Positions 2,803 to 51,685 of a DNA stretch of 64,000 nucleotides are shown piece by piece. The notes under the pieces were generated by a model. It made no database searches. It was given only the letters and a program-made list of their open reading frames with translations, and had not been told where the DNA came from. Numbering within the stretch: the stretch's first letter is position 1; each line of letters starts with the position of its first letter. The DNA is from Candidatus Omnitrophota bacterium (GTDB lineage: Bacteria; Omnitrophota; Gorgyraeia; Gorgyraeales; Gorgyraeaceae). Where the stretch lies: positions 8,064-72,063 of the forward strand of contig DNHS01000056.1 in the NCBI GenBank assembly GCA_003485765.1, given 5' to 3'. The position numbers and the translations under genes were made by a program.

Positions 2803-2837
2803 ATGTTACAAAACGAGTATGGCTTGTTTTGTAACAT
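2803..2837. repeat. 35-bp palindromic intergenic element, copy 1 (ATGTTACAAAAC-gagtatggctt-GTTTTGTAACAT)
   Basis: 12-bp perfect inverted arms with an 11-nt loop. The same element is at 9219-9252, 24231-24263 and 43632-43666. Confidence 0.8.
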
Positions 2838-5343: not shown

Positions 5344-7181
5344 ACTTGCGCAGGAAAAACTATCTTTTTTACCTCTTCCGAATCCAATACCTCTTTTTCA
5401 AGCAATGTTTCAGCAAGGGCTTTTAATTTTTCAACATTAGCTGTTAATTCATCTTTTGCCCGCTTATAGCACTCTTCTATGATTTTGCGTATCTCTTTAT
5501 CTATTTCCACAGCTGTTGCTTCGCTGTAATTTCTTTCTTCCACAATATCGCGGCCAAGAAATATCTGATCTTCTCTCCTCCCAAAAGTAAGATTTCCAAG
5601 TTTCTCGCTCATGCCCCATCTCATTACCATATCCCTGGCAATATCAGTAGATTTTTCTAAATCGTCTTGAGCGCCCGTTGAAAGCTCCCCGAACACAAGA
5701 TCCTCGCTGGCCCTGCCGCCCAATATGCCAACTATCCTTCCTATCAGTTCTTTTTTAGTCACGATGTATCTATCTTCCAAAGGCAGCCTCATCGTGTAAC
5801 CAAGCGCAATGCCCCTTGGTATAATAGAAACTTTATGCAAAGGGTCAGCTCCTGGTATCAGAAGCGCTAAAAGCGCATGGCCTGATTCATGATACGAAAC
5901 TATTTTTTTCTCCTCTAGGTTTATAACTCTTGTCTTTTTTTCAGGCCCTGCAATAACTCTTTCAATAGACTCTCCTAATTCTTTCATCTCCACATTCTCT
6001 TTATTTCTCCTCGCAGCCAAAAGAGCAGCCTCGTTCACAAGATTAGCAAGGTCTGCCCCTGAAAAACCAGATGTCTGCCTTGCAATGTATTTAAGGTCAG
6101 CGTCTTTGTTGAGCTTAATGCCTTTTGTGTGAACTTTCAATATCGCTTCTCTGCCTATGATATCAGGCCTGGAGATAACTATTGTTCTGTCAAATCTCCC
6201 TGGCCTTAACAATGCCGGGTCCAGAACATCAGGCCTGTTGGTAGCTGCTATCAGTATAACGCCTTCCTGTGTATCGAATCCATCCATCTCTACAAGAAGC
6301 GCGTTCAAAGTCTGTTCCCGTTCGTCGTGGCCACCGCCTATTCCTGCGAACCTCTGCCTTCCTACTGCATCTATTTCATCAATAAAAATAATGCATCCTC
6401 TGCCGCTTATCTTTGCAGAGCGTTTGGCTTGCTCAAAAAGATCTCTTACTCTGGAGGCGCCTACGCCCACAAACATCTCTACGAAATCAGAACCGCTTAT
6501 GTTGAAAAATGGCACACCTGCTTCGCCGCTCACTGCCTTTGCTAGAAGGGTTTTTCCCGTGCCAGGGGGCCCCATCAATAAAACGCCTTTAGGAATCTTG
6601 CCGCCTAATTTCTGGAACCTCTTAGGATCTTTTAAAAATTCTATAATCTCCTTCAATTCTTCTTTTGCTTCGTCAACCCCGGCAACATTATCAAATGTTA
6701 TTTTTAATTTATCGCCTGCTATTTGTTTTGCGCGACTTTTCCCAAACGAAAGTATTTTGCCTCCTCCCTGCGCACCTCTATATACAAAAAACCACAGGAA
6801 TCCTATGAATAAAAGCATTGGCCCAAGTGAATAAAAAAGATTTGTCCACAACGTCTTTGGAGGTTTAACATCAAAATCAGGCACATTGTTACGTAATAAA
6901 TTTAAAAGCTCAGGATCTTCCTGGGGTATATGCACTGTAAAACGCGCTCCGCTGGAAAACGTGCCTTTGAGCTCATCCTCCATTTTTACAACAGACTTAA
7001 TGGCCACTGTTTGTTTATTGCCTTGTAATAGCCTGTAAAATTCACCGTAACTCAGCTCTTTTGGAAGCGAAGCTTGGGAGAAAGAATCCATCCTGAATAT
7101 ATATATAAGAAGCAAAAACAGCCCTACCCATAATAAAATATTCTTATTAACTTTATTCCCGCCTTTATTTTCCATTTTCAT
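5340..7181 (-). CDS. ftsH: ATP-dependent zinc metalloprotease FtsH
   Basis: 613 aa. N-terminal TM region, AAA Walker [14 protein letters not shown], second region of homology, HEAGH zinc motif (HESGHAL). Confidence 0.95.
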
Positions 7182-9218: not shown

Positions 9219-9252
9219 ATGTTACAAAACGAGTATGACTTGTTTTGTAACA
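9219..9252. repeat. 35-bp palindromic intergenic element, copy 2
   Basis: ATGTTACAAAACgagtatgacttGTTTTGTAACA, between larE-like and mnmA. Confidence 0.8.
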
Positions 9253-9268
9253 GGCACGAATTGTAAAG

Positions 9269-10426
9269 TTACGATAATATTTTGTCGATCCAGCCGCCGC
9301 CTGAGACATATTCTCCATCATAAAAAACAGCTGCTTGTCCTGGCGTTATTGCGCTTTGTGGCTCTTTAAAATCTACTTCTGCAATATTGCCGCCTAAATC
9401 CTTTACGTAAGCCCAAGCCTTTTTATGATTATATCTTATCTTCACCTCTAAATCTTTTTCTTTTTCAGTATCCTTTGCCAGCCAGTTGATTTTCTTCACC
9501 AGAAATCTTTTTTTCTTAACATCTTCCGCGGCTCCGACAACAATAATATTATGCTTAGGCCTTATTTCTGTAACATAAAGAGGTTCTTTGGCGGCTATGC
9601 CAAGCCCTCTGCGCTGGCCTATTGTAAAATTCCAGAAACCCATATGATTTCCAAGCGCCTTGCCAGATCTATCTATTATATTGCCTTTCTGAGGCTTTAT
9701 ATTTCTATACTTTTTTATAAAATCAGAATAATTATTATCAGGAACAAAACATATCTCCTGACTATCAGGCTTATCGTATATGTTAAGCTCTAATTCCTTT
9801 GCTTTACGCCTGATATCATCCTTTGTAAAATTTCCTATCGGAAATAGTATTTTTTTCAACTGGCTTTGTTTCAGGCAAAATAAAACATAAGATTGGTCTT
9901 TTGCTTTATCAACAGATTCTCTCAGCCCATAAGAACCATTTATACATTCGCCCGCCACAGAAACCAATGGCGGGCTCAGTATTCCGCCCAAGGAACCCCG
10001 GGCATTAGCCCGGGTGGGCTCCATTTCTATCCTGGCATAATGTCCTGTTGCAATAAAATTACAGCCTAGGCCAATTGCTTTTTTAAGCAGACTGCCGAAC
10101 TTTATTTTTTCGTTGCAAACAATACATGGATTAGGGGTTTTGCCTGCTAAATATTCTTTTACAAAATAGTCTATTACATTCTTTTGGAAGTCCGCTTCAA
10201 GATTTAAAACATAATGTTTTATGCCGAGGACTCTTGAAACCTTTCTTGCGTCTTCTATATCTTTTAATGAGCAGCACGCCTTTTCTTTTTCCTTGCCGCA
10301 TAACTCCTTCGGCCAAACCTTCATGGTGGCGCCTATGACTTCATATCCAGCTTCATTCAGAATAGCTGCTGCCACAGAGCTGTCCACCCCGCCACTCATC
10401 GCAACTAGTACTCGCTTATTCTTCAT
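9269..10426 (-). CDS. mnmA: tRNA-specific 2-thiouridylase
   Basis: 385 aa. VLVAMSGGVDSSVAA PP-loop, catalytic Cys residues, C-terminal beta-barrel region. Confidence 0.9.
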   Translation of the reverse strand: MKNKRVLVAMSGGVDSSVAAAILNEAGYEVIGATMKVWPKELCGKEKEKACCSLKDIEDARKVSRVLGIKHYVLNLEADFQKNVIDYFVKEYLAGKTPNPCIVCNEKIKFGSLLKKAIGLGCNFIATGHYARIEMEPTRANARGSLGGILSPPLVSVAGECINGSYGLRESVDKAKDQSYVLFCLKQSQLKKILFPIGNFTKDDIRRKAKELELNIYDKPDSQEICFVPDNNYSDFIKKYRNIKPQKGNIIDRSGKALGNHMGFWNFTIGQRRGLGIAAKEPLYVTEIRPKHNIIVVGAAEDVKKKRFLVKKINWLAKDTEKEKDLEVKIRYNHKKAWAYVKDLGGNIAEVDFKEPQSAITPGQAAVFYDGEYVSGGGWIDKILS

Positions 10427-12122: not shown

Positions 12123-14082
12123 TATTTTTTAATTCCTTTATTCTATCTCTCAATTTCGCTGCGCGTTCAAACTGTAAATTCCTAGCCAAAAGCTCCATCT
12201 CTCTTTCAAACTCAGCAATTACCATTTCTTTTTCATAATCTTCTTCACTCTGGCCAGTTGCTTCAATAACAATCTCTTCTGCTTTTTTAAGAGATTCTAT
12301 GCCGTTTCTAATAGCCTTTTCAATAGAGCGGGGCGTAATATTATTTGCCTTATTAAACTCTGCCTGTTTCTTCCTTCTCCTGTTTGTTTCCTCGATAGCC
12401 TTTCTCATTGAACTTGTTATATTGTCTGCATACATTATAACATGGCCGTCTATATTCCTGGCTGCCCTTCCTGCCACCTGAATCAAAGATGTCTCTGATC
12501 TCAGGAAACCTTCTTTATCTGCATCCAAAATAGCTACCAGAGCTACCTCTGGCAAATCCAGGCCTTCTCTCAATAGGTTTATCCCTACCAGGCAGTCAAA
12601 TTTCTGCATCCTTAAATCCCTTAATATCTCCGAGCGCTCAATAGTATCTAACTCTGAATGTATATACCTTGCTTTCAGGCCTAACTCTTTCAAATACCCG
12701 GCAAGGTCTTCGGACATCCTTTTTGTTAAAGTAGTGACAAACACTCTCTGGTTTTTAGACGCTCTTTGTTTTATGTTTTCAACAAGGTCCTGTATCTGAT
12801 TCTCAGTTGGTTTCACAGTTATTTCCGGGTCCAATAACCCTGTAGGCCTTATGACCTGTTCCGCTATCCGGCCTGAATTTTGCAGCTCGTATTCCGAAGG
12901 CGTAGCTGAAACAAATACTGTTTCATGAACAATGCCCATAAATTCTTCAAAGCTTAAAGGCCTGTTATCCAAAGCTGACGGAAGCCTGAATCCATAATCA
13001 ACAAGCGTCTGCTTGCGGGCTCTGTCTCCATTGTACATGCCTCTCAGCTGCGGCATTGTGACATGCGATTCATCAATTATTGTCAAAAAATTTTCCGGGA
13101 AATAATCCAGAAGGCAGCTTGGCCTTGAGCCAGCAAGCCTTTGGCTCAAATGCCTTGAATAATTTTCTATGCCGTTACAAAATCCCATTTCCTGAAGCAT
13201 CTCAATATCATAACGCGTCCTGGACCCTAACCTCTGTGCCTCCAATAATTTATTCTGCGCCCTTAATTCCTTAAGCCTTTCTTCAAGCTCTACCTCTATT
13301 GACCTGATAGCTGAGTCTATTCTTTCCTGCGTAGTGACAAAATGTTTGGCTGGATATATAGCTATCTTTTCAATAAAATCCGCGAGCGTGCTGCCGCTAA
13401 CAGGATCTAATTCTGAAATCTTCTCTATCTCATCTCCAAACAAACTTATCCTGAAAAATGTTTCTTTATACGCGGGGAATATATCTATAGTATCGCCTCT
13501 TACCCTAAAACAGCCTCTCTTGAAATCAACATCGTTTCTGGTGTAATGTATGTTTACAAGGCGGGATAATAAAGCGCTTCTTTTTATCGCCTCTTTCTTC
13601 TTTAAAAATAATAATAAATCTTTATAATCTTCTGGCGAACCCAGGCCGTAAATGCACGACACGCTTGCTACTATAATAACATCGCTCCTAGACATAAGAG
13701 AACTAGTAGCAGAAAGCCTGAGCCTGTCTATATTATCATTTATAGAAGCGTCTTTTTCTATATAGATATCTGCCTGCGGCACATATGCCTCTGGCTGGTA
13801 ATAATCGTAATAGCTTACAAAATATTCAACTGCATTATACGGAAAGAATTCTTTGAATTCACTGTATAACTGCGCAGCGAGAGTTTTATTATGCGATACC
13901 ACAAGCGTAGGCCTTTGGACATTACTGACCACATTAGCCATAGTAAATGTTTTACCGCTGCCAGTAACGCCAAAAAGCGTTTGATACTTCAAATTTTTTT
14001 GCAGCCCATCAGTAAGCTTATCAATAGCCTGCTGCTGATCCCCGCAAGGCTTAAATGGAGCGACTAATTGAAATTTTGGCAT
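12112..14082 (-). CDS. uvrB: Excinuclease ABC subunit B
   Basis: 656 aa. [12 protein letters not shown] Walker A, helicase motifs, C-terminal UvrB/UvrC interaction coiled coil. Confidence 0.95.
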
Positions 14083-14933: not shown

Positions 14934-14957
14934 CTTATTTAACTATTAACTCTGCCC

Positions 14958-15247
14958 GTGCCAGCAGTTTGCGAGGACGCAAAATTTTCCCAGCGTGAAA
15001 ATTTTGCTCCGTTTTGACCCTCGCTCGTCTGTTGAGCCAGGTGGGGTCTGAGGCACATTAGAATCGTTTCGGCAAAAGTCCGCAAGGATTTATGGTGAGT
15101 TCTGTTCAGTTGACAATACGATAGTCGACAGAAGAACGAACCATAAACCGTAGCGGACGGCGAAACGATTCAGTGCCGAATGGCCCCACCTGGCTCAACA
15201 GACACCGTGCCCGCTCGTGTCAAAGAGGCCTCTCAAACTGCTGGCAC
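14958..15247. repeat. Composite structured repeat, copy 1: module A (14958-15029 plus 15201-15247) with module B (15030-15200) nested inside it
   Basis: Terminal inverted repeat CCAGCAGTTTGCGAGG / CCTCTCAAACTGCTGG. The 57-nt core GAGGACGCAAAATTTTCCCAGCGTGAAAATTTTGCTCCGTTTTGACCCTCGCTCGTC is identical to the one at 20830-20886. The inner module has TIR TGTTGAGCCAGGTGGGGTC / GGCCCCACCTGGCTCAACA. Lies in the valS-nadC intergenic region, the nadC leader. Confidence 0.75.
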
Positions 15248-15261
15248 AGGCAGAAAGCCAA

Positions 15262-17895
15262 CTACAGATCTTCAATAGTCTTTCCCAACCTATCTATTTG
15301 TTCTCTGAGCTTCTCAGCCTTTTCCTGCTCAGCCCTGACTACGCTTTCAGGCGCGTGATCCATGAAATTTTTATCCTTCAATTTCTTTTCTGTAAACACA
15401 ATCTGTTGCTTTAATAAATCCTGCTTCTTTACCAGCCTGGCCTTTTCTGCCTCCACGTCTATTACCCCCTCCAGAGGAATAAATATATTAAACTCTTCTG
15501 TAACAGCGCTGAGAGAGCTCTTCGGCCTTATAAAATTTTCATCTATTGTCAATTTCTCAAGATGAGCCAGATTTTTGATATATTCCGCGTTATTGGATAC
15601 TACAGAACCAGCTCCTTGTTTCAATGGCGCAAGCCCTACTGTCAATTTTTTAGAATAAGCTATATTCATATCAGAACGAATATTCCTTATATTGACTATA
15701 ATATTTTTTACTATCTCTATATCGGACTCTATTTTTTTATTTATATAATGCTTATCTGCTTCGGGCCACGCTGCAATCATTATGCTGTCTCTTTCTCTTA
15801 TGCTCTGCCATATGGCCTCTGTCACAAACGGCATAAAAGGATGTAATAATTTCAGCGAATTTTCTAACACATGTATTAAGATTTCTCCTGTTCTCTGCTC
15901 TTTGCTCTCCGCGCTTTGCCCTATAATTTGCGGCTTTACCATCTCCACATACCAATCGCAAAAATCATGCCAAAAGAAATCATATAACAAGCTCTCCGCT
16001 TCATTAAATCTATAATTTTTCAATGCCCTAGTCACAGCCTCTATGGTTCTATTTAATCTGCTCAATATCCACCTGTCAGCTATAGACAGCTTTTCTTCTG
16101 CTCTATGCTCTACGCGCTCTGCCCTCTGCTCGATATTCATCAACACAAACCTTGACGCATTCCATATCTTATTCGCAAAATTCCTGCCTATCTCAAATTT
16201 TTCTTTTGATAAGAATACGTCCTGGCCAGCAGAGGTTATGGATATAATGCTAAACCTTAAAGCATCTGCGCCAAATCCATCTATTATCTCCAATGGGTCT
16301 ATTATATTCCCCAGAGATTTTGACATCTTCTTGCCTGTTGCGTCCCTGACAGTCCCGTGTATATAAACATCGCTGAACGGAATCTCTTTTATGAATTCCT
16401 TGCCTGACATAATCATCCTTGCGACCCAGAAAAATAATATCTCAGGCGCGGTTACCAGAACAGAGGTTGGGTAAAAATACTCCATGTCTTTTGTTTTTTC
16501 AGGCCACCCGAGAGTTGAAAATGGCCACAGCCACGACGAGAACCATGTATCCAACACATCCTCATCCTGTTTCAATTCTACGCTTCCGCACTTTTGGCAT
16601 TTTTCAGGCGTAACTTTTGAAACAATAACAGCGTTACATTTCTGACAATAGTAAACAGGCAGGCGATGTCCCCACCATATCTGCCTTGAGATGCACCAGT
16701 CCTTTATATTCTCCATCCAATTCAGATAAACCTTTGTCCATCTCTTTGGGTGGAATTTAATTTTTCCGCTTCTGACCGCTTCTATTGCAGGTTCTGCCAA
16801 TGGCTTCATTCTCACAAACCACTGCAAAGATAGATACGGCTCTATTACAGTATGGCACCTGTAACAATGCCCTACTGCGTGGTCATGTTTTTCTGTTTTT
16901 ATCAATAATTTCTTTTCTTCAAGTTCAGCTACTATTAACTTTCGAGCCTCAAATCTATCCAGGCCATTGAATCTGCCTGCATTTTCATTCATCCTTCCGT
17001 CAGGCCCCATGACAGTTATTGGTTCTAAATTATGCCGTTTTGCCATTTCAAAATCATTAGGGTCATGAGCAGGCGTAACTTTTACAGCGCCTGTGCCGAA
17101 TTTTTTATCCACAAAATCATCCGCAATAATGTTTATCTCTTTCCCAACAATAGGCAATATTAATTTCTTGCCCATTAATTTCTTGTATCTCCTATCCTTG
17201 GGATTTACCGCCACTGCAACATCTCCAAGCATAGTCTCCGGCCTAGTGGTCGCCACCACCACTCCTTTACCCTCTTTAAACGAATACAGTATATAGTAAA
17301 GCTTCCCCTCCACATCCTGATGAGGCGCTTCTTCGTCAGAAAGAGCTGTCTGGCACCTGGGGCACCAGTTGATTATATAATTGCCCCTATAGATCAAGCC
17401 TTTATTATAGAGTTGGACAAATGCTTCCAAAACTGCTTCTGAAAGGCCTTTATCCATGGTAAAACGCGTTCTCTCCCAGTCGCATGAAGCGCCCAGTCTT
17501 TTAAGCTGCATGATAATAGTATTCCCGTATTTCTCCCTCCACTTCCATACCTCTTCTACAAACTTTTCCCTTCCAAGCCCCTGCCTAGTGATGCCTTTTT
17601 CCCGCAGATTTCTTTCCACAACATTTTGCGTAGCTATTCCAGCATGGTCCGTGCCAGGCACCCATAAACTCGCAGATCCTTGCATCCTTTTCCATCTTAT
17701 AAGAATATCCTGTAATGTATTGTTCAGCGCGTGCCCCATATGGAGAATTCCTGTAACATTGGGCGGAGGAATTGTTATGGTAAAAGGTTTCTTGGAAGGA
17801 TCAGGCTCTGCATGAAAAAGCCTGCTATTTTCCCATTTAGAATAAATAGACTCTTCGTGATCTTTTGGATTATATCTTGGAGGTATGTCTTTCAT
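15262..17895 (-). CDS. valS: Valyl-tRNA synthetase
   Basis: 877 aa. HMGH (HIGH-class) and KMSKS motifs, C-terminal coiled coil. Confidence 0.95.
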   Translation of the reverse strand: MKDIPPRYNPKDHEESIYSKWENSRLFHAEPDPSKKPFTITIPPPNVTGILHMGHALNNTLQDILIRWKRMQGSASLWVPGTDHAGIATQNVVERNLREKGITRQGLGREKFVEEVWKWREKYGNTIIMQLKRLGASCDWERTRFTMDKGLSEAVLEAFVQLYNKGLIYRGNYIINWCPRCQTALSDEEAPHQDVEGKLYYILYSFKEGKGVVVATTRPETMLGDVAVAVNPKDRRYKKLMGKKLILPIVGKEINIIADDFVDKKFGTGAVKVTPAHDPNDFEMAKRHNLEPITVMGPDGRMNENAGRFNGLDRFEARKLIVAELEEKKLLIKTEKHDHAVGHCYRCHTVIEPYLSLQWFVRMKPLAEPAIEAVRSGKIKFHPKRWTKVYLNWMENIKDWCISRQIWWGHRLPVYYCQKCNAVIVSKVTPEKCQKCGSVELKQDEDVLDTWFSSWLWPFSTLGWPEKTKDMEYFYPTSVLVTAPEILFFWVARMIMSGKEFIKEIPFSDVYIHGTVRDATGKKMSKSLGNIIDPLEIIDGFGADALRFSIISITSAGQDVFLSKEKFEIGRNFANKIWNASRFVLMNIEQRAERVEHRAEEKLSIADRWILSRLNRTIEAVTRALKNYRFNEAESLLYDFFWHDFCDWYVEMVKPQIIGQSAESKEQRTGEILIHVLENSLKLLHPFMPFVTEAIWQSIRERDSIMIAAWPEADKHYINKKIESDIEIVKNIIVNIRNIRSDMNIAYSKKLTVGLAPLKQGAGSVVSNNAEYIKNLAHLEKLTIDENFIRPKSSLSAVTEEFNIFIPLEGVIDVEAEKARLVKKQDLLKQQIVFTEKKLKDKNFMDHAPESVVRAEQEKAEKLREQIDRLGKTIEDL

Positions 17896-20700: not shown

Positions 20701-20806
20701 ATCGATAAATATTACCACAAATGCTAAAAATAATCTATTAAAATATTTCCGTTCACTGAGCCAAGATAGGGTCATTCAACATTGAATCGTTTCAGTAATT
20801 CGCTAA

Positions 20807-20959
20807 TGCTGCTAAGGCTACTGGGTTTCGAGGACGCAAAATTTTCCCAGCGTGAAAATTTTGCTCCGTTTTGACCCTCGCTCGTCCCAACGCTATTCGC
20901 GTCGGGACACCAGCCCGCTCGGGTCAAAGAGGCCTCTCAACCCAGTAGCCTTAGCAGCA
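20807..20959. repeat. Structured repeat module A, copy 2 (stand-alone, about 153 nt)
   Basis: TIR TGCTGCTAAGGCTACTGGG / CCCAGTAGCCTTAGCAGCA. Shares the 57-nt core with copy 1. A small hairpin (CCCAACGC-tattc-GCGTCGGG) sits where copy 1 carries module B. Confidence 0.75.
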
Positions 20960-20986: not shown

Positions 20987-21177
20987 TTGCTGAGCCAGGC
21001 TGGGGCCTGAGGCACATTTGAAAGGTTTTGGCACCATGTTTATTTTACTTTTAGTGCGCAAGGATTTACAGCGAGTTTCGATCAAGTGACAATACGATAG
21101 TCGACAAAGAAACGAGCTGTAAACCGTAGCGCACCCAAAAGCATTTCTGTGCCGCAGACCCCAGACTGGCTCAGCAA
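20987..21177. repeat. Structured repeat module B, copy 2 (stand-alone, about 191 nt)
   Basis: TIR TTGCTGAGCCAGGCTGGGGCCTGAGGCAC / GTGCCGCAGACCCCAGACTGGCTCAGCAA. Conserved apex GTGACAATACGATAGTCGACA. The internal stem shows compensatory substitutions relative to copy 1. Lies in the long lysC leader. Confidence 0.75.
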
Positions 21178-23437: not shown

Positions 23438-24243
23438 TGCATGATCTCCTTTATCTTCCCTGCAATATCATCTGCTCCCAAAAACGCTCCACCTATTAGA
23501 ACAGCATTCACTCCAGCCTTCCTGAGCTTTCCAATATCTTCATTGGTGGATATCCCGCTTTCACTAATTGTTATAATTTCTTTAGGGATTTTAGGAATAA
23601 GTCTGTAAGCGGTATCCATCGATATTATGAATGTCTCCAGATCCCTATTATTAACCCCTATTATATCTGCTCCGCTCAACAAGGCCTTTTCAAGATCAAA
23701 TTCATCGTGAATCTCAATAATGGCATCCATGTTAATCTTTTTCGCAAGATGCATAAAACTCTTTATCTGGTCCACTGATAAAATCCTAGCAATTAATAGT
23801 ATTGCGTCTGCTCCGAAATAACGGGACTCGTAAACCTGATATTCGTCTATTATAAAATCTTTTCTCAGGACAGGCATATCTACGGCGCGCTTTACTTCAT
23901 TTATATGCAGGATATTCCCGCTAAAAAACTTTTTATCTGTGAGGACTGATATAGCTTTAGCTCCTTCTGCCTTATATATATTTGCTATGGTGGTTATATC
24001 TAATTTTCTGAAAAAATTTCTTTTAAAAGACGGAGATTTCTTTTTTATCTCTGCAATAAGGTTCAGCTCTTCCCCGCTGGAGATAGCTTTTTTAAATGGC
24101 CGTATGCCTCTTAATAGGCGTTTTGAATCAACAAACTCTGTTATAGCCCTTTTGGATTTCAGCGCATCGACTTCTTTTCTTTTTAATATAATTATATCCT
24201 GCAAAAAATTTTTCATATTATGCGCTACTAGTTTACAAAACAA
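23434..24243 (-). CDS. trpC: Indole-3-glycerol phosphate synthase
   Basis: 269 aa with IGPS motifs (IAEIKKKSPS, VLRKDFIID, GVNNRDLETF). The real start is possibly the internal Met at 24216. Confidence 0.85.
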   Translation of the reverse strand: MFCKLVAHNMKNFLQDIIILKRKEVDALKSKRAITEFVDSKRLLRGIRPFKKAISSGEELNLIAEIKKKSPSFKRNFFRKLDITTIANIYKAEGAKAISVLTDKKFFSGNILHINEVKRAVDMPVLRKDFIIDEYQVYESRYFGADAILLIARILSVDQIKSFMHLAKKINMDAIIEIHDEFDLEKALLSGADIIGVNNRDLETFIISMDTAYRLIPKIPKEIITISESGISTNEDIGKLRKAGVNAVLIGGAFLGADDIAGKIKEIMQ

Positions 24244-24263
24244 GTCATACTCGTTTTGTAAAC
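24231..24263. repeat. 35-bp palindromic intergenic element, copy 3 (opposite loop orientation)
   Basis: GTTTACAAAACaagtcatactcGTTTTGTAAAC at the trpD stop / trpC start junction. Confidence 0.75.
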
Positions 24264-28478: not shown

Positions 28479-28517
28479 TTGGCAGACTAAAGTCTGCCCT
28501 ACAATTTTATAGCAAAG
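28479..28517 (-). promoter_or_regulatory. Conserved hairpin motif (AAAATTGTAG-GGCAGAC-ttta-GTCTGCC-AA, minus strand) 8 nt upstream of the hisF ATG
   Basis: Perfect 7-bp stem with a 4-nt loop. Near-identical motif at 39717-39755, where the stem carries a compensatory C<->G swap. Confidence 0.55.
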
Positions 28518-28532
28518 ATCTTTACTTTCATA

Positions 28533-29258
28533 TTATTTCGCGATTTGTATGGCTTCCTGTAAATCAATCTTGCTTTCATATATCGCCTTGCCGATAACAA
28601 CGCCTTCTAAATTCTTATTTTCAATTTCTTTCAATTTTTTTATATCTTTCAGGGAAGAAATACCGCCGGAAGCTATGACAGAGATATCTACGGTATTAAG
28701 GATTTGTTTCAATCTCTCTATTCTTGGACCTTTTAATGTCCCATCTACGCTTATGTCAGTCAATATTATAGTCTTAACTCCTATTTTTTGCATCTCCTGA
28801 ACCATAAATATTGGGTCCAGGCCTGTTTTTTCCTTCCAGCCGTGTTTCACAACCTCGTCTCTATGAAAATCCACACCCACAGCTATCTTTTCTCTAAATT
28901 CTTTTATCAGTTCTTCTAAAAACCTTGGATCTTCAAAAGCCTTAGTGCCTAATATCACGCGTCTTGCGCCGCTATTTAAAAAATACTCTATATCGCTTTT
29001 ATCCCTGATGCCCCCGCCTACTTCGCATGGCGTTTTTATATTTTTTATAATCTCCGCTATTATATCTTGGTTTTTTATCTTTCCTTCTCTTGCGCCGTCC
29101 AAATCAACTATATGCAGTAATTCCGCTCCTTTTTTCTCCAAATATTTTGCCATCTCAAGAGGGTTGTTTGAATAAATCCTCTTCTTATTAAAATTGCCTT
29201 TTACAAGCCTAACTACCTTTCCACCAATTATATCTATAGCTGGAATAATTAACATCAT
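28533..29258 (-). CDS. hisA: 1-(5-phosphoribosyl)-5-[(5-phosphoribosylamino)methylideneamino]imidazole-4-carboxamide isomerase
   Basis: 241 aa. IIPAIDI..GKVVRL... and GGGIR HisA motifs. Confidence 0.9.
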   Translation of the reverse strand: MMLIIPAIDIIGGKVVRLVKGNFNKKRIYSNNPLEMAKYLEKKGAELLHIVDLDGAREGKIKNQDIIAEIIKNIKTPCEVGGGIRDKSDIEYFLNSGARRVILGTKAFEDPRFLEELIKEFREKIAVGVDFHRDEVVKHGWKEKTGLDPIFMVQEMQKIGVKTIILTDISVDGTLKGPRIERLKQILNTVDISVIASGGISSLKDIKKLKEIENKNLEGVVIGKAIYESKIDLQEAIQIAK

Positions 29259-29293: not shown

Positions 29294-29974
29294 TTAAGCA
29301 ATTATGTTAACAAAGTTCTCTATAATTTTTAACCCCATAGATTGGCTTTTTTCAGGATGAAATTGAAATCCATATACATTGTCTTTACGCACTCCTGAAG
29401 CAAAATCCCATCCATAATCTGTCTCGCATAAAATAACATTTTTATCTTTCGGCACCGCATAATACGAATGCACAAAATACATATAACTCCCGTCTTCCAC
29501 CCCATCTATAACTTTTAACTTTGAACTTTTAAACTTTAAACTAATTCTATTCCACCCCATATGTGGTATCTTTAATCCATCTCTTTCCTTAAACCTTCTA
29601 ACCTTGCCTTTTATAATATCCAGGCCTTTTATACATTCGCCCAAGGAACCCCGGGCTTTAGCCCTGGTGGGCTCCGCTTTCCCGCCTTCCTCGCTTTCAG
29701 TAAATAAAAGCTGCAATCCTAGGCATATTCCTAAAAAAGGTCTGCCTTTTTCTATAGAGTCCTTGATCGGCTCTATTAAATCTCTTTTTTTTAATTCTTC
29801 CATTGCGACCTTAAAAGCTCCTACACCAGGCAGAATTATTTTATCAGCCTTAAGGATATCTTTTGCAGACGAACTCACAATAACATTTGAACAGAATTTC
29901 TCAAACGCCTTCTGAACGCTCCTCAAATTCCCCATCCCGTAATCAATAATAACTATCATTTTACATTCCAACAA
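29294..29974 (-). CDS. hisH: Imidazole glycerol phosphate synthase glutamine amidotransferase subunit
   Basis: GATase triad (GICLGLQ, HMGWN, FHPEKS). Start probably at MIVIIDYG (29959). Contains an in-frame tandem-heptamer segment at about 29506-29540. Confidence 0.85.
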   Translation of the reverse strand: MLECKMIVIIDYGMGNLRSVQKAFEKFCSNVIVSSSAKDILKADKIILPGVGAFKVAMEELKKRDLIEPIKDSIEKGRPFLGICLGLQLLFTESEEGGKAEPTRAKARGSLGECIKGLDIIKGKVRRFKERDGLKIPHMGWNRISLKFKSSKLKVIDGVEDGSYMYFVHSYYAVPKDKNVILCETDYGWDFASGVRKDNVYGFQFHPEKSQSMGLKIIENFVNIIA

Positions 29975-39716: not shown

Positions 39717-39755
39717 TTGGCACACTAAAGTGTGCCCTACAATTTTGTCGCAAAG
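39717..39755 (-). promoter_or_regulatory. Conserved hairpin motif (AAAATTGTAG-GGCACAC-ttta-GTGTGCC-AA), second copy
   Basis: Same flanks as the 28479-28517 motif. The stem sequence differs by a compensatory G/C exchange that preserves pairing. Confidence 0.55.
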
Positions 39756-39759
39756 GCCT

Positions 39760-40581
39760 TTAATTCTTTATTCCATCTTTCGTAATTATAATTTCTTTTT
39801 TTTCGCCTTTTTTCCCGGAAAAACTTGCGGGTTTTCCGTTTACACTTATCTTAATAACTCCGGAATTGCCTGCTTCCAATTTTATTTCTTTTTTTGCCTT
39901 CCACGTATCCGAACTACCTTTTCTAAATGTCCCCGTAAACATAAGCACTCCGTCGCCTATTATCCGGAGCCATGTATTATCCGAAGTAGAAACTTCTATC
40001 TCAATTTCATCTGTTTTTACAGCTGCAGCTTCTTCTTTTTTCTCTTTTAAAGGTTTTCGTTCAGAGAGTTGGTGGGTTGCTTGCTCCGTACCCTTGCGCG
40101 CGCTTTTAACTATCTTATTTTGCTTCTTTACAGATATATTTTTAATAAATTTAGTAACATGGCTAATAGCTGACGATAACACCCAGAATACAAATACTCC
40201 TATAATTATAGCTATTATCTGGTTCTTATATTTAATTATGCATGAAAAACCTAACTGCGGCATTTCTTTTGCAGGCAAAGATTTTTGTTGTGCGGTTCCA
40301 GAAATAGGCACGGCTACTGGCTTTAAAATCGTTGGCGGCTGGCCGGATTTAGCAAGATATTCTTTTATACCAGGCTCATCCAATGCCCCTAAAAAAACAG
40401 CGTATGTTTTTACAAAGCTCTTTGCATAAAAAACTGACCTTATTTCATTCAGCCTGTCTTCTTCCAGGGTAGAAATTATATGCTTAGGTATGCGGCTTCT
40501 CTCGGATACTTCTTCTATGGAAAGATGCTTGGATTCCCTTGTTCTTTTTAATATTTTACCTAATGACTCTGGCAGATGCAT
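39760..40581 (-). CDS. rodZ: RodZ-like cytoskeleton protein (N-terminal XRE-type HTH, TM helix, C-terminal DUF4115-like domain)
   Basis: 273 aa. HTH (LGKILKRTRESKHLSIEEVSERSRIPKHIISTLEE), one TM segment, C-terminal beta-rich domain. Confidence 0.6.
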   Translation of the reverse strand: MHLPESLGKILKRTRESKHLSIEEVSERSRIPKHIISTLEEDRLNEIRSVFYAKSFVKTYAVFLGALDEPGIKEYLAKSGQPPTILKPVAVPISGTAQQKSLPAKEMPQLGFSCIIKYKNQIIAIIIGVFVFWVLSSAISHVTKFIKNISVKKQNKIVKSARKGTEQATHQLSERKPLKEKKEEAAAVKTDEIEIEVSTSDNTWLRIIGDGVLMFTGTFRKGSSDTWKAKKEIKLEAGNSGVIKISVNGKPASFSGKKGEKKEIIITKDGIKN

Positions 40582-42870: not shown

Positions 42871-43650
42871 CTATGGTTTTAAAATTAAAACAACCGCTAT
42901 TCCCAGCAGAATACAATATATCCCAAACCAATGAAACTTATTTCTATAAAGCACTTTTAATAATACTTTTAATGATACAACCCCTACAATACAAGATATA
43001 AAAAGTCCGATAAAATAATTTATATTTACGCCTGTAAGATTAAACCCTGTTTCCTTGATTTTAAATAAGAACGCCCCTAGTATTGCCGGGATAGATAATA
43101 AAAACGAGAATTTTGCAGCAGTCTGTCCATCAAGCCCTAAAAATAACCCTGTGGAAATCGTGGCGCCGCTCCTGGATATGCCAGGTAAAGCTGCTATACC
43201 CTGAGCTAGTCCAATCAAACCTGCTTTAAAAACTGTCATACCCTCTGTTCCAAGTCTTATGAAATTAGCAGCAATAAGCCATATGCCTGTCAGTATAAGC
43301 ATAATACCGACTGTTCTTACATTACTAAATGCAGCCTCTATGTTTTTAATAAAGAACAAAACAAAAACAAATGTTACTAAGCTGCTTGCTAAAATTAATG
43401 CGCCTATTCTTTTTTTAGTAGTTACACTTTCTATTATATCTCTGCCGAATACTATAAATACGGCTACTAAGGTTCCAAGATGCAAAAATAAATCGAAAAG
43501 AATTTCAGGCTCATTAAGGCCCATTAATTTATGCAAAATAACCAAATGGCCTGAGCTTGAAATAGGTAAAAACTCTGCCACGCCCTGCACGATCCCTGAA
43601 ATTATAGCCTGAAATAACCCCATAACCCCGTATGTTACAAAACAAGTCAT
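42871..43650 (-). CDS. uppP: Undecaprenyl-diphosphatase
   Basis: BacA family, EFLPISSSGH motif. The real start is probably the internal Met at 43623, which would leave the palindromic repeat fully intergenic. Confidence 0.85.
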   Translation of the reverse strand: MTCFVTYGVMGLFQAIISGIVQGVAEFLPISSSGHLVILHKLMGLNEPEILFDLFLHLGTLVAVFIVFGRDIIESVTTKKRIGALILASSLVTFVFVLFFIKNIEAAFSNVRTVGIMLILTGIWLIAANFIRLGTEGMTVFKAGLIGLAQGIAALPGISRSGATISTGLFLGLDGQTAAKFSFLLSIPAILGAFLFKIKETGFNLTGVNINYFIGLFISCIVGVVSLKVLLKVLYRNKFHWFGIYCILLGIAVVLILKP

Positions 43651-43666
43651 ACTCGTTTTGTAACAT
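43632..43666. repeat. 35-bp palindromic intergenic element, copy 4
   Basis: ATGTTACAAAACaagtcatactcGTTTTGTAACAT between pnp and uppP. Confidence 0.8.
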
Positions 43667-47022: not shown

Positions 47023-47027
47023 AATTT

Positions 47028-47447
47028 TTAAATAATTATATTACGAGGAGGAAAAATAAAACATACCTTAAAATCTTCGTTCATCTGAGGCTGAAGCTGC
47101 GCAAGATATGGTTTATCATCTAACGTAAGCCAGGCATGGCCATATATCTTTTCACTGTCGCCTTTTACGCCTATATTAATCCTGACTTCGATGCCTTTTT
47201 CCCTCAAAAATTTATAAAGAATCAAAGATCTTTTAAGACAGGTCCCTCGCCTGCTAAAAAATGGCGCTCGCAGCTTAAAAAATAAATCAAGATATTTTGT
47301 TATCTTTGATATATTCCATTCTCTTAATTTAGGAGGCCTGCAAGGCGTCCATGATTTAAGGATTTCAGGAAGAGGTTTTATATGTATTATGACTGGCAGA
47401 ATAAAAAATAGATAAGAAACTCTTGCAAAAAGAAAAATATCTTTCAT
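47028..47447 (-). CDS. Transglutaminase-like cysteine protease, lasso-peptide B2 / McjB C-terminal-domain family (candidate leader peptidase)
   Basis: Putative Cys/His/Asp triad within CLKRSLILYKFLREKGIEVRINIGV...GHAWLTLDD. Start chosen at MKDIF (47447), forming an ATGA overlap with the GT4 stop. Confidence 0.6.
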   Translation of the reverse strand: MKDIFLFARVSYLFFILPVIIHIKPLPEILKSWTPCRPPKLREWNISKITKYLDLFFKLRAPFFSRRGTCLKRSLILYKFLREKGIEVRINIGVKGDSEKIYGHAWLTLDDKPYLAQLQPQMNEDFKVCFIFPPRNIII

Positions 47448-48685: not shown

Positions 48686-49670
48686 ATTTATGTTTTATCA
48701 ACCTCTTTAAAATCAAAGATAAATTAGCAGGAGACTTTATTATATCTTTTCCGCCAAGAAGCAAATAAGAGCGGCATTGCTTAGCCAGCTTTTTCAAAAT
48801 CTCCATAGCTTCAACATGATGATCTCTAACCGGCTCAAGCGATGAGAACATAAGATTTTCAACTATCTTTATCATCGCTTCATTCGAAGAAAGAGGCATG
48901 AGTTTACTTTTCTTTTTATGCGTTATCGTAGGAAATACAATAAAATTCGGAGCAGAAGCTTTTTTATAACAAGCTTTACGCCTTGCGCATACCCCTGTCC
49001 CTTTTTCGTGATCCCTGCGCAGCATTCTGGTTGGAAACGGATAAACTTTCACCTTGGAATTTGAGCGGCATAAAAACGATATATCATCTCCGCGGCAAAT
49101 AAAACCAGCCTTAGTAAGATTTATAGAAATAGTGGTTTTTCCGTATCCGCTATCGCCCGGAAATAATATACTAACATCGCCCTTTGTCAAATAAGCTGCA
49201 TGTAAGGCGAAAAAACCTCTGATTCTAAAAAAATACATCAACATAATGCGGATAGAATTTCTAAAACTCCTTGGTTTAACCTGGCCTGTAGTAAACAACA
49301 AAATTTTATTTTGATGGTAAAGCCCTGCCATGGGCGAAATTTCGCCATAGTTTCCAAGATGCCTGAGATATCTTACATCTTTGATATCTTTAAAATACTG
49401 AGGCCCTTTAAAATCTTTAGAAACGCCGGGCTGCCAATCTGTTTCGGCCGGCATATCTAAAGGAATCTGAGAAAGGTCCTTGACTGAAATAACTACCATG
49501 GTAACATCAGGTTGCTTTTTTTTAACAATGTCTTTGACAAGATACATTTTGTCAATAGCTCTATAAAAAGAGCTGTTATCTGTCATTATCCTGACAGATA
49601 GACCTCCGATCAGACATGTTTCTGTGAACCTATAGCATTTATTAAAATATGGTGTAAAATCAATTTTCAT
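48666..49670 (-). CDS. HPr-kinase-related (HprK C-domain-like) P-loop kinase, candidate precursor-peptide kinase
   Basis: 334 aa. LHAAYLTKGDVSILFPGDSGYGKTTISINL...GDDISFL resembles the HprK Walker-A region. Such kinases accompany PqqD/B2 genes in lasso-peptide loci. Confidence 0.55.
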   Translation of the reverse strand: MKIDFTPYFNKCYRFTETCLIGGLSVRIMTDNSSFYRAIDKMYLVKDIVKKKQPDVTMVVISVKDLSQIPLDMPAETDWQPGVSKDFKGPQYFKDIKDVRYLRHLGNYGEISPMAGLYHQNKILLFTTGQVKPRSFRNSIRIMLMYFFRIRGFFALHAAYLTKGDVSILFPGDSGYGKTTISINLTKAGFICRGDDISFLCRSNSKVKVYPFPTRMLRRDHEKGTGVCARRKACYKKASAPNFIVFPTITHKKKSKLMPLSSNEAMIKIVENLMFSSLEPVRDHHVEAMEILKKLAKQCRSYLLLGGKDIIKSPANLSLILKRLIKHKYEDMHY

Positions 49671-50817
49671 TTGTAAAAGATGGGCTAAAAGCTGTACTTA
49701 TATGCAGGTTTTTCTTTTCCGGCCATCTCCTAAAAGCTGTTTGAAGAGGAAGCTTTTTAAAAACTCGCCAACATTGCGGGTCTGGCGCGGATAATTGATT
49801 GAAGTATGCATGGCTTATGCACAGCGCTCCTCCATGACAGAATTTAAAATTGCGGCATTTCTGGCACAAAGAGTGCGCATTATTCAAATTTCTCAACTGC
49901 CATAATATATCTGAAGAAAAATATACTTCTAGCAGGCTCTTTTGCAGGACATTTCCTACTTTTATAGGAAGCCGCCTGCATGCTAGAACATCGCCATTAG
50001 GAAACAAAGACAATGTCCTGCCTTCGACCACTCCGCAGCACACTTTCCTATGAGCCATGTCTCCTGTTAAAGCGCTGTTAAATATGCCGTCCTCGCATCC
50101 ATTGGCAATATGAAGCTTGCTATGTTTCGCCCTTAATTCAATGCGCATTTTTCTTTTCCAATGATAAATTTTTCTTAATTCTTCCGGGCTTAATAAGTTA
50201 AACTTGTTTTCTTTGCCCTTTCCGATAGGGACAAACCTCCTTATGCCAACCTTTCCAACTCCTAGCTTTTCGCATAGCTGGACAAGCGCAGGCACATCAG
50301 CCATATTTTTCCTTGTCAGCGTAAAAGAAACAGCGGTTCGCATGCCTGTGTTTACCAATAACTTGGCTTTCTCAATTACTTTATCAAAGCTGCCTTTTTC
50401 GCGTATATTGTCATTATTTTCCTGCATGCCTTCAAGGCTCAACTGCACCCTTTTAACTCCCAAAGATTTCAACTTTAAGGCATTTTTCTCGTTAATAAGA
50501 GAGCTGTTGGTCAAAATGCCTACGGTAAATCTGCCCTTATTATATTTATTTACAAATTTCAATAACCGGAAAAAATCTTTTCTGATAAATGGTTCTCCGC
50601 CGGCAAAGTTAAGATAAGAATGGCCCTTTGGCGAGTTTAAAGCTTTAAGCAAATCCAGATACTGGAAAAAGATATCGCATAATTTAGCGAATGGCAGCTC
50701 TTTCATGTTTTCTTTTTCCCTATAACAATGCTTGCAGCTCCAATTACACCTCTCAGTTATATGCCACTGAAGGGTAAAGGCGCGAAAAAAATCAAAATAA
50801 TGAGGTATGGTTTCCAT
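49660..50817 (-). CDS. Radical SAM enzyme with C-terminal SPASM domain (RiPP maturase candidate)
   Basis: 385 aa. CNWSCKHC (CxxxCxxC) near the N-terminus. C-terminal Cys cluster (CCGVVEG...C...CQKCRNFKFCHGGALC) typical of SPASM auxiliary Fe-S domains. Confidence 0.8.
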   Translation of the reverse strand: METIPHYFDFFRAFTLQWHITERCNWSCKHCYREKENMKELPFAKLCDIFFQYLDLLKALNSPKGHSYLNFAGGEPFIRKDFFRLLKFVNKYNKGRFTVGILTNSSLINEKNALKLKSLGVKRVQLSLEGMQENNDNIREKGSFDKVIEKAKLLVNTGMRTAVSFTLTRKNMADVPALVQLCEKLGVGKVGIRRFVPIGKGKENKFNLLSPEELRKIYHWKRKMRIELRAKHSKLHIANGCEDGIFNSALTGDMAHRKVCCGVVEGRTLSLFPNGDVLACRRLPIKVGNVLQKSLLEVYFSSDILWQLRNLNNAHSLCQKCRNFKFCHGGALCISHAYFNQLSAPDPQCWRVFKKLPLQTAFRRWPEKKNLHISTAFSPSFTNEN

Positions 50818-50825
50818 ACTATGTA

Positions 50826-51107
50826 TTAAGCTGTAATTTCTACCATCTTCTCTTTTATAAGTTTTTTTATCTGGCGATTTACGCTAGCGAATGCTTTATC
50901 TTTATCAACGTCATATTCATCCACTATCGCATCGGTTATTTCTCCAATAGTCTTTTTGCCATCCAAAAGCTGCCAAATCCTTACTCCCGCCTCATTAAGC
51001 CTATAAAAATACTTTGTTTCAAAATTTAAAAGAACAGCTTCTTTGTTATCCAGTTCAGTATAGATTATGGACGGCTTAACTCTTAAGCGCTGTTTGGGGT
51101 TTATCAT
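50826..51107 (-). CDS. PqqD-family protein (RiPP recognition element), copy 1
   Basis: 93 aa. Pattern L.N.T...Y.LN..G..IW.LLDG..T..EI matches PqqD/RRE. Confidence 0.7.
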   Translation of the reverse strand: MINPKQRLRVKPSIIYTELDNKEAVLLNFETKYFYRLNEAGVRIWQLLDGKKTIGEITDAIVDEYDVDKDKAFASVNRQIKKLIKEKMVEITA

Positions 51108-51372
51108 ATAAACTCAATACGCCTGTTTTTGATAACTTATTTATAAAGCTGCTGGCATCTTTTTTCGCTGTCTCATAATTAACGTCGAATTCTTTAAGTA
51201 CGGCGTCTATAATTTTATTTACCTTTGTTTTGCCATCCGCCAAATTCCATATAAAGCTTCCCATGGGATTAAGAAAGTAAAAAGCATTGTCCTTTAGATT
51301 TAAAATAACTGTTTCTCCGTCTATTATTCTACAGTGAAGCTTTTTACCAGGTAATACGTATTTGTCAAGCAC
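51076..51372 (-). CDS. PqqD-family protein (RiPP recognition element), copy 2
   Basis: 98 aa. IDGETVILNLKDNAFYFLNPMGSFIWNLADGKTKVNKII PqqD pattern. GTG start with AGGGAGG RBS. Overlaps copy 1 by 32 nt. Confidence 0.7.
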   Translation of the reverse strand: MLDKYVLPGKKLHCRIIDGETVILNLKDNAFYFLNPMGSFIWNLADGKTKVNKIIDAVLKEFDVNYETAKKDASSFINKLSKTGVLSLYDKPQTALKS

Positions 51373-51515: not shown

Positions 51516-51659
51516 CTAAGCGCAGGAGGTACAACTGGCGCAGCTGGAACAACTCGTGCCTACCCGATTATTCAGTTTTCCTTCTTTTTTCAACTGCGGT
51601 TCTTTAAAAAACTTTTTGTATTCTGGTTTTTGATATTGTTTTTTATTATTCTTGTCCAT
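51516..51659 (-). CDS. Candidate RiPP precursor peptide (47 aa): MDKNNKKQYQKPEYKKFFKEPQLKKEGKLNNRVGTSCSSCASCTSCA
   Basis: Not in the ORF track (<60 aa). Manual translation of the minus strand. AAGGAGGA RBS 5 nt upstream of the ATG, own promoter, Lys-rich leader, C-terminal C-x-x-C-x-x-C-x-x-C Ser/Thr-rich core. First gene of the operon. Confidence 0.6.
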   Translation of the reverse strand: MDKNNKKQYQKPEYKKFFKEPQLKKEGKLNNRVGTSCSSCASCTSCA

Positions 51660-51685
51660 ATACATCCTCCTTATCTTATATTAAT

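Follow-up and report, generated by a model that had tools for sequence, protein, structure and literature searches.

The DNA analyzed here is a 64,000-nucleotide (nt) stretch from a Candidatus Omnitrophota bacterium (assembly GCA_003485765.1, contig DNHS01000056.1, positions 8,064 to 72,063 of the forward strand), hereafter the window, in which two intergenic gaps hold copies of two highly structured repeated modules, A and B. The window has a G+C content of 38% and contains 54 open reading frames (ORFs), nearly all on one strand and separated by gaps that are mostly shorter than 80 nt; the source genome is very compact. The order of the minus-strand genes of interest is apgM, locus 2, lysC, cimA, valS, locus 1, nadC and uvrB, where locus 1 and locus 2 denote the two gaps that carry the modules. 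At 328 nt (locus 1) and 417 nt (locus 2), they are two of the four largest gaps of the window.

Locus 1 contains a composite element of 302 nt (14952–15253) in which module B, a 171-nt imperfect rod-like hairpin of the subtype that we call Ba (15030–15200; 187.9 bits in nhmmer), occupies the exact apex of a frame built by module A. The frame is closed by a terminal stem, P1, whose left arm (ctgcccgtgccagcagtttg, 14952–14971) pairs with the right arm (caaactgctggcacaggcag, 15234–15253) in minimum free energy (MFE) folds of both strands; P1 is 20 bp long and has one C.A mismatch, which becomes a perfect pair in the orthologous copy of a related locus, L027. Inside P1, the A-left core (14972–15029) comprises the GAGG half of stem P2, a perfect 11-bp hairpin (GCAAAATTTTC-ccagcgt-GAAAATTTTGC, 14979–15007) with a conserved CCAGCGT loop, the TTTTGACCC half of stem P4, and the junction motif CTCGCTCGTC (15020–15029). 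On the far side of B, the A-right core (15201–15233) supplies the junction motif GACACCGTGCCCGCTCG, the GTCAAA half of P4 and the CCTC half of P2. The predicted fold of the complete element has an energy of -170.8 kcal/mol (z = -15.7) on the plus strand and -164.2 kcal/mol (z = -15.05) on the minus strand. A nested B-in-A architecture had been proposed from the letters of this DNA and its ORFs (below, the sequence-only reading), and it is indeed present; the proposed span, 14958–15247, clips 6 nt from each P1 arm.

The same reading had placed a second A and a second B, separate and adjacent, at locus 2. Both are there, together with a fragment of about 45 nt that had been missed. This fragment, the remnant of a B terminus, lies to the left of A (20757–20800; 81% to a B end in blastn, read directly). 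The adjoining A frame (20808–20958) is of type A1 and has its own 20-bp P1 (gctgctaaggctactgggtt / aacccagtagccttagcagc); at its apex, in the place where locus 1 holds B, is a 25-nt hairpin (GTCCCAACGCTATTCGCGTCGGGAC). A solo B of the other subtype, Bb, with an extra side arm (20989–21175; 154.6 bits in nhmmer), lies 30 nt from A. Folded alone, the A and the B of locus 2 gave energies of -86 (z = -11.5) and -88 (z = -9.2), respectively, and in none of the four tests (both strands of locus 1, A, and B) was a shuffled sequence as stable as the real one. With a B fragment, then A without B, and then B, locus 2 is an unusual, scrambled case. Its A is the only one without B in all sequence examined, a count biased by a metagenome scan that was based on B.

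When the two loci are compared, A-left is 98.4% identical over 61 nt (E = 2.6e-25), the A-left core of locus 1 being 98% identical to 20826–20886; A-right is 91.7% identical over 36 nt (E = 6e-8), and B is 70.5% identical over 190 aligned columns (E = 5.7e-21). The P1 stems of the two A copies have no obvious shared sequence, yet each pairs perfectly or nearly so. No further copy of A or B was found within the window.

Searches outside the window revealed many more copies. An exact 22-mer from the A core led to three loci in the Omnitrophota metagenome-assembled genome (MAG) JAHJQM01, and a two-block pattern from B led to 21 metagenome loci. Related loci fetched from other assemblies carry labels of the type L001–L030, and all comparison sequences are metagenome assemblies. 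In a profile search of the window and 29 related loci, 36 B copies scoring at least 100 bits were detected at about 22 distinct sites. As far as sampled, the family is confined to the Omnitrophota clade around "Omnitrophica bacterium GWA2_41_15". The elements occupy junctions of tightly packed co-directional genes, the flanking genes are unrelated between sites, and about half of the copies are in sense and half in antisense orientation relative to these genes. The substitution pattern of the elements is compensatory rather than codon-like, and nothing in them looks coding. Within the window, where only two copies are seen, one could think of chance resemblance or of a simple segmental duplication. 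With E values of 1e-21 to 1e-25, fold z scores of -9 to -16, flanks that differ and dozens of copies elsewhere, the probability of either is practically negligible, and the outcome that the sequence-only reading had named as its own refutation, a mere two copies produced by segmental duplication, is clearly contradicted by the number of B copies and sites. One candidate, L017, considered as the valS-nadC junction of a more distant genome, was rejected since its flanks are unrelated.

The commonest form of the family is A(B), that is, B nested in A. It measures approximately 300–330 nt, and in 15 or more places B meets A at an identical junction (CTCGCTCGTC, B, GACACCGTGCCCGCTCG). Such a composite is closed by a 20-bp stem of variable sequence, continues into a small three-way frame whose loop and junction motifs are conserved, and ends in the B rod at the apex. 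Overall, the elements range from 150 to 330 nt, with single units of 150–190 nt that have complex internal loops. The nesting at locus 1 had been read as a signature of local sequential insertion. This does not hold: because A(B) with the same junction is the commonest form, the composite at locus 1 was either inherited or spread as one piece.

Frames come in at least three types: A1, to which those of the window belong, A2, and A3, which is longer. Their helices all differ in sequence; the CCAGCGT loop and the junction motifs are kept while the stems covary. B exists as two subtypes with fully compensated stems (TTTATGGT/ACCATAAA versus TTTACAGC/GCTGTAAA). All four combinations of A1 or A2 with Ba or Bb are present, and the A and B subtypes assort independently and recombine freely. 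B is found without a frame at L008b, L013, L018, L022, and locus 2 of the window, amid decayed remnants of A at L008a and L024, and inverted within an A2-like frame once, at L026; its orientation inside A is near-constant, at about 15 to 1. Parts of B are optional, since some copies have a side arm of about 20 nt and two copies of L026 have an alternative apex. A GC-rich hairpin (CCCGCCCTTT-loop-AAAGGGCGGG) present twice inside the A2 frame of L028 (7384–7409 and 7447–7472) and alone in L007 (1096–1121) is a further nested module.

To follow the elements at orthologous positions, we compared the syntenic block apgM-lysC-cimA-valS-nadC-uvrB in four relatives (L027–L030), in which lysC is 92–96% identical. 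At the apgM-lysC junction, where the window has the A and B modules of locus 2, L027 has 37 nt, L029 has 70 nt with a small hairpin, and L030 has 63 nt. The contig of L028 (relative CG1_02_40_15) starts 322 nt upstream of lysC and carries at this junction the 3' end of a group II intron (L028 1–300), consisting of a maturase C terminus and domain V/VI (RF00029, 50.8 bits, at 196–269); the junction is thus a hot spot that draws mobile DNA of several kinds. At the valS-nadC junction, the A1(B) of locus 1 is shared by L027, and the other three relatives have a short unrelated palindrome in a spacer upstream of nadC of only 40–60 nt. In L028 (approximately 6203–6243) this is a short perfect palindrome, GTAGGGAACGGTTTCAAACCGTTCCCTAC, that overlaps the stop codon, and in L030 (approximately 15728–15787) it has 24-bp arms; no T-run follows the palindrome in either of these two spacers. 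At the third junction, nadC and uvrB overlap by 19 nt in the window (14064–14082, minus strand), L027 has a 361-nt insert with A2(B), L028 has a longer relative of this insert, and in L029 and L030 the genes abut, with the nadC stop codon TAA directly next to the uvrB ATG. An alignment of filled and empty sites identifies the overlap as an empty site, A2(B) being inserted exactly here in L027/L003 and in L028. The C terminus of nadC differs (LEICK*) in the insert-bearing L027 and L028; thus gain or loss of an element remodels gene ends.

Upstream of lysC there is also a segment that does not change. A block, TATTTTAATAGATTATTTTnnGCATTTGTGGTAATATTT (20701–20749, minus strand), lies directly upstream of the lysC start codon, includes an extended -10-like TGgTAATAT, and is kept (TATTTTAATAGATTATTTT..GCATTTGTGGTAATATTT) in the window and in all four relatives, while everything upstream of it differs. 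This block is probably a promoter. The locus 2 elements sit upstream of it and hence outside the lysC leader. Both window copies are located upstream of nadC or lysC on the coding side, and the sequence-only reading had suggested that they could affect the expression of these genes, as cis-regulatory leaders of the riboswitch or attenuator kind would. We regard such a role as very unlikely and as contradicted by the comparison of relatives: neither module is found before lysC in any of the four relatives, as far as the junction is readable, or before nadC in L028, L029, and L030, other copies lie beside unrelated genes in both orientations, neither a lysine riboswitch nor any other Rfam match was found, and at locus 2 the promoter-like block separates the elements from the gene.

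A second repeat family was noticed in the same material. It is a 33-nt hairpin (TGTTACAAAACGAGTATGGCTTGTTTTGTAACA) that occurs with both loop orientations in short intergenic gaps, four times in the window (2804–2836, 9220–9252, 24231–24263, and 43633–43665). In L029 it lies at approximately 9931–9965 and 15464–15497, directly past the stop codons of apgM and valS, that is, at the "empty" sites of loci 2 and 1, respectively.

Sites elsewhere in the family also differ between relatives. At a site where L020 carries A1(B), L022 carries only a B, oppositely oriented; the A3(B) of L009 has as its counterpart in L018 an inverted solo B of a different subtype, between flanks that are approximately 95–100% identical. 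One site is occupied by A2(Bb) in L007, by A1(Ba) in L012, and by an inverted A2(Ba) in L016, and L015b and L021 differ likewise at the site they share. The B of locus 1 is 100% identical to the B of L020, which lies in another assembly and at a different site. The same junctions have gained and lost elements, and have had them replaced or inverted, within the time that separates very close relatives. The claim that A and B are separable, repeated, structured, mobile-like modules is borne out by their presence at many unrelated sites, by filled and empty sites, and by B standing alone or, once, inverted.

Swapping or flipping of content at identical junctions between near-identical flanks recalls attC sites. 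If the elements were folded single-strand recombination sites of this sort, or invertible segments of a site-specific recombinase, cassette-like replacement and inversion at fixed junctions would be accounted for; their location between co-directional genes, a structure that is conserved where the sequence is not, and a variable apical part would fit as well. However, the flanks are core housekeeping genes in conserved synteny and not cassettes, inspection of the arms of both loci revealed no R'/R'' core sites (GTTRRRY / RYYYAAC), a Pfam scan of 30 window ORFs found no integrase, and inversion is more simply explained by recombination between 17–20-bp inverted arms. We therefore consider this explanation quite unlikely.

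The conservation of the fold was analyzed in 14 distinct composites, for which RNAalifold gave a consensus rod with one branch. Standard pairs were found in 98% of the cells, compared with 35–44% when the partners were slid by 1–3 columns, and 32 of 81 pairs had changes on both sides, compared with 4–6 after sliding. In 500 column shuffles, the observed values of pairing or double change were never reached. The compensatory changes support a folded single strand as the selected form, with RNA and single-stranded DNA not told apart. P1 could not be aligned by MAFFT and was checked copy by copy: its arms pair in each copy with 0–2 mismatches, and its sequence differs in every copy. Among the A1 copies the arms are loosely homologous, with a consensus of about CTCTGCCcAGaCcAGC..., and hence P1 belongs to the element and evolves fast. 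A target-derived P1, expected if elements inserted into pre-existing hairpins, was rejected on the same ground. The terminal stems (P1 of A and the end stem of B) vary the most, and the internal loops and junctions are almost invariant. This combination of variable terminal stems with an almost invariant interior is unusual, as is the hierarchical nesting at hairpin apices.

We also asked which strand might be functional. B is biased to the plus strand (72 G.U versus 22 A.C), on which its polymorphic wobble pairs are G.U. P1 of A has the opposite bias (7 C.A versus 2 G.T on the plus strand), and the composite is more stable on the plus strand in only 9 of 15 copies. Since A and B point in opposite ways, these counts and the MFE differences did not permit a strand assignment. 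No promoter or terminator signal traveling with the element was detected above background or shuffles.

Taken together, we think it probable, with some reserve, that A and B form a previously uncatalogued family of non-coding, non-autonomous palindromic mobile repeats resembling REPINs, MITEs (transposable elements of the miniature inverted-repeat kind), and BOX elements. The reasons are the many copies at unrelated junctions in both orientations, the filled, empty, replaced, and inverted sites, and the separable modules, together with the lack of coding capacity and of an enzyme nearby. Independent assemblies end inside the repeats (L002 and L015), as expected of multi-copy DNA, and the junctions of loci 1 and 2 also attract other mobile or palindromic DNA, namely the group II intron and the short palindromes of the relatives. 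Such elements would be moved in trans by an enzyme that is encoded elsewhere and recognizes the folded single strand, possibly via a single-stranded DNA intermediate, as in REPIN/RAYT or IS200/IS605-type systems. Inversions and module swaps may arise by recombination between the 17–20-bp inverted arms and between copies. Their position within operon-like strings of genes makes co-transcription probable, and as stem-loops in RNA they could, for example, signal processing or confer stability.

Several observations weigh against mobility of this kind. The terminal inverted repeats vary more than any other part, in contrast to those of a classical MITE. Neither a consistent target-site duplication nor a consistent flanking target motif was seen around approximately 20 copies, and the single clean filled/empty pair has at most an ambiguous ATTT duplication. 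Neither a parent insertion sequence (IS) nor a mobilizing enzyme was identified in the 64-kb window or in the flanks of the copies. Mis-assembly within the repeats cannot be fully excluded, the material being metagenome assemblies only. However, the key loci were recovered in identical form from two or three independent sources (L003 = L019 = L027; window = L001 = L002), which argues against an assembly artefact. Furthermore, the orthologous copy of locus 1 is 97–99% identical between the window and L027, while windows in the flanking valS and nadC are mostly 74–94% identical, as if purifying selection acted on the sequence as a whole. In 26 of 27 copies, B folds more stably on the plus strand, and the conserved internal loops and junctions together with the near-constant orientation of B in A would fit a functional RNA as well.

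The last points lead to the main and serious rival, a multi-copy family of structured RNAs, either genes or cis-acting, that selection on the host maintains. In this view, A would provide a frame with a three-way junction, B would extend it by a further domain, the variability of the stems would be that of normal covarying helices, and copies would have spread by duplication or recombination. The sequence-only reading had allowed for two structured non-coding RNA domains; strong covariation with conserved loops and junctions speaks for that part of it, and the absence of an Rfam match does not. The orthologous locus 1 copy is better conserved than the genes beside it, B lies in A almost always the same way round, and B prefers one strand, with its wobbles as G.U on the more stable strand; all of this is as an RNA family would have it. 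The same is true of the differences between the window and L027 at locus 1, all seven of which are structure-neutral or compensatory (they comprise a compensatory pair, a mismatch that is repaired, a pair that becomes a wobble, a single change in the P2 region, and loop changes). On the other hand, paired and unpaired columns, tested for an RNA-like excess in the latter, are equally conserved (85% each), and the strand bias of A is opposite to that of B. An RNA family would also have to accommodate both orientations within operon-like gene strings, the lack of promoter or terminator signals above background, and very close relatives that have no element, or a different or inverted one, at the same junction. 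We judge an RNA family of this type possible, and less than probable.

A further reading is one that we put forward as a tentative and rather doubtful proposal. A new structure-dependent mobile element, or a mobile structured RNA, could consist of modules that dock into apical loops like Russian dolls: small hairpins in A, B in A, and a side arm and an alternative apex in B. Docking would take place at the conserved junction (CTCGCTCGTC / GACACCGTGCCCGCTCG), an enzyme would recognize the modules solely as a folded single strand, and the fold, being of use to the host or to the element itself, would keep them under strong purifying selection.

With regard to a mobile repeat family, we examined the window for enzymes that could serve it. 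No transposase, integrase, reverse transcriptase, or Y1 enzyme was found among the 30 of approximately 54 window ORFs scanned against Pfam; the search also took in 7 further ORFs (NCBIfam), and the his/trp block was assigned via precomputed Pfam matches on the syntenic genes of L027. In the Pfam and NCBIfam scans of window ORFs, no IscB, TnpB, or reverse transcriptase gene adjoined the elements. No IS or transposase lies next to any copy in the inspected flanks of the related loci. In Rfam searches, the whole window yielded only tRNAs at the gathering score, both loci yielded nothing meaningful at E up to 10, and 14 related loci with divergent copies yielded no family for the elements and one group II intron, that of L028. 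A literature search on Omnitrophota repeats returned nothing specific. Viral contigs scanned with one A motif and two B motifs contained nothing related, and four 17-mer matches in them were dismissed as chance in GC-rich DNA.

Among known systems, the BOX elements of Streptococcus pneumoniae have the structure boxA-boxB(n)-boxC, and BIMEs are enterobacterial mosaics. Like these, the present elements have paired end modules that enclose a variable middle module, forms with and without the middle module coexist (ABC/AC there, A(B)/A here), and a stable RNA or DNA secondary structure is predicted. There is no sequence relation, and here the middle module also occurs solo, can be inverted, and is itself a long hairpin that can carry further side hairpins.

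Repetitive extragenic palindromic (REP) sequences and REPINs, which are mobilized by RAYT (Y1/HUH) transposases, are likewise intergenic, multi-copy, non-coding palindromes with long imperfect hairpins (PMC3116915, PMC3733652). Further similarities are the lack of a consistent target-site duplication, the maintenance of pairing, non-autonomy, and persistence combined with turnover at orthologous sites. In REP/REPIN systems, a single gene at another position of the genome provides the enzyme (Bertels & Rainey, PMC3116915; Di Nocera et al., PMC3733652), and no RAYT was detected within the 64-kb window of the source genome in the Pfam scan of 30 of its approximately 54 ORFs. REPs are 20–40 nt and REPINs approximately 100 nt long, compared with 150–330 nt here, and a REPIN consists of two inverted REPs, in contrast to a three-way frame with a nested rod. 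The GTAG/CGTC foot tag of REPs was not found in this arrangement: CGTC occurs only in the A/B junction motif CTCGCTCGTC, GTAG only inside B, and solo B has no CGTC.

Correia/NEMIS, ERIC/IRU, and RU-1 MITEs are similar in size, lack of an ORF, terminal inverted repeats, and long hairpins (PMC3184786, PMC10969869). Bacterial MITEs are co-transcribed with their neighbors and show presence/absence polymorphism between strains (PMC3184786, PMC10969869). The elements described here share with MITEs that they are short (about 50–500 bp in MITEs), non-coding, and multi-copy and that their insertions are polymorphic between related genomes. They do not end in inverted repeats that are conserved and common to a parent IS, the terminal stems being the most variable part, and they have no evident target-site duplications, which classical MITEs make. 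The HEARO/IscB omega RNA, the TnpB reRNA, and group II intron domains are also multi-copy, highly structured, and tied to mobile DNA; they differ in that none of their covariance models matched the elements at E up to 10. We have filed the family under small palindromic mobile repeats, as a new variant outside the MITE and REPIN families proper, because the features that define those families (conserved terminal inverted repeats with target-site duplication, and tagged REPs with RAYT) were either not found or lie beyond the data.

Omnitrophota are an uncultured and little-studied phylum with very compact genomes, and in the window these elements are among the few large spacers. The finding is real, structured, and dynamic and of a familiar general kind; its mechanism is one that we infer. 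The repeat system provides a marker for strain-level genome dynamics and accounts for the recurrent breaks in assemblies of these MAGs. It is also a candidate system for structure-recognizing enzymes that move DNA, or for the tolerance of long RNA hairpins in operons, and it is a warning that elements of this sort should not be annotated as riboswitches or leaders of particular genes.

Some other features of the window deserve mention. A 421-nt gap between two glycosyltransferase genes (47023–47443), without an ORF of at least 80 amino acids, showed no Rfam match and no similarity to A or B. A short ORF at 51076–51372 looks PqqD-like by eye, and an ORF of 49 amino acids at 51516–51665 has a Cys/Ser-rich tail (...GTSCSSCASCTSCA). 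Radical SAM genes are located at 49660–50817 and 57490–58563, and radical SAM/SPASM genes thus lie near both short ORFs, which suggests a precursor-maturase cluster for a ribosomally synthesized and post-translationally modified peptide (RiPP) among glycosyltransferases. A 56-nt direct repeat (28479–28534 and 39717–39772) in two short intergenic gaps consists of a hairpin, GGCAGACT-AA-AGTCTGCC, followed by CTACAATTTT; it may be terminator-like or represent another small repeat family. Finally, a 38-nt repeat (9985–10022 and 29638–29675; 95% identical; CGCCCAAGGAACCCCGGGC.TTAGCCC.GGTGGGCTCC) lies within the ORFs 9269–10426 and 29294–29974 and could represent either a motif common to the two proteins or a palindrome inserted into coding sequence.

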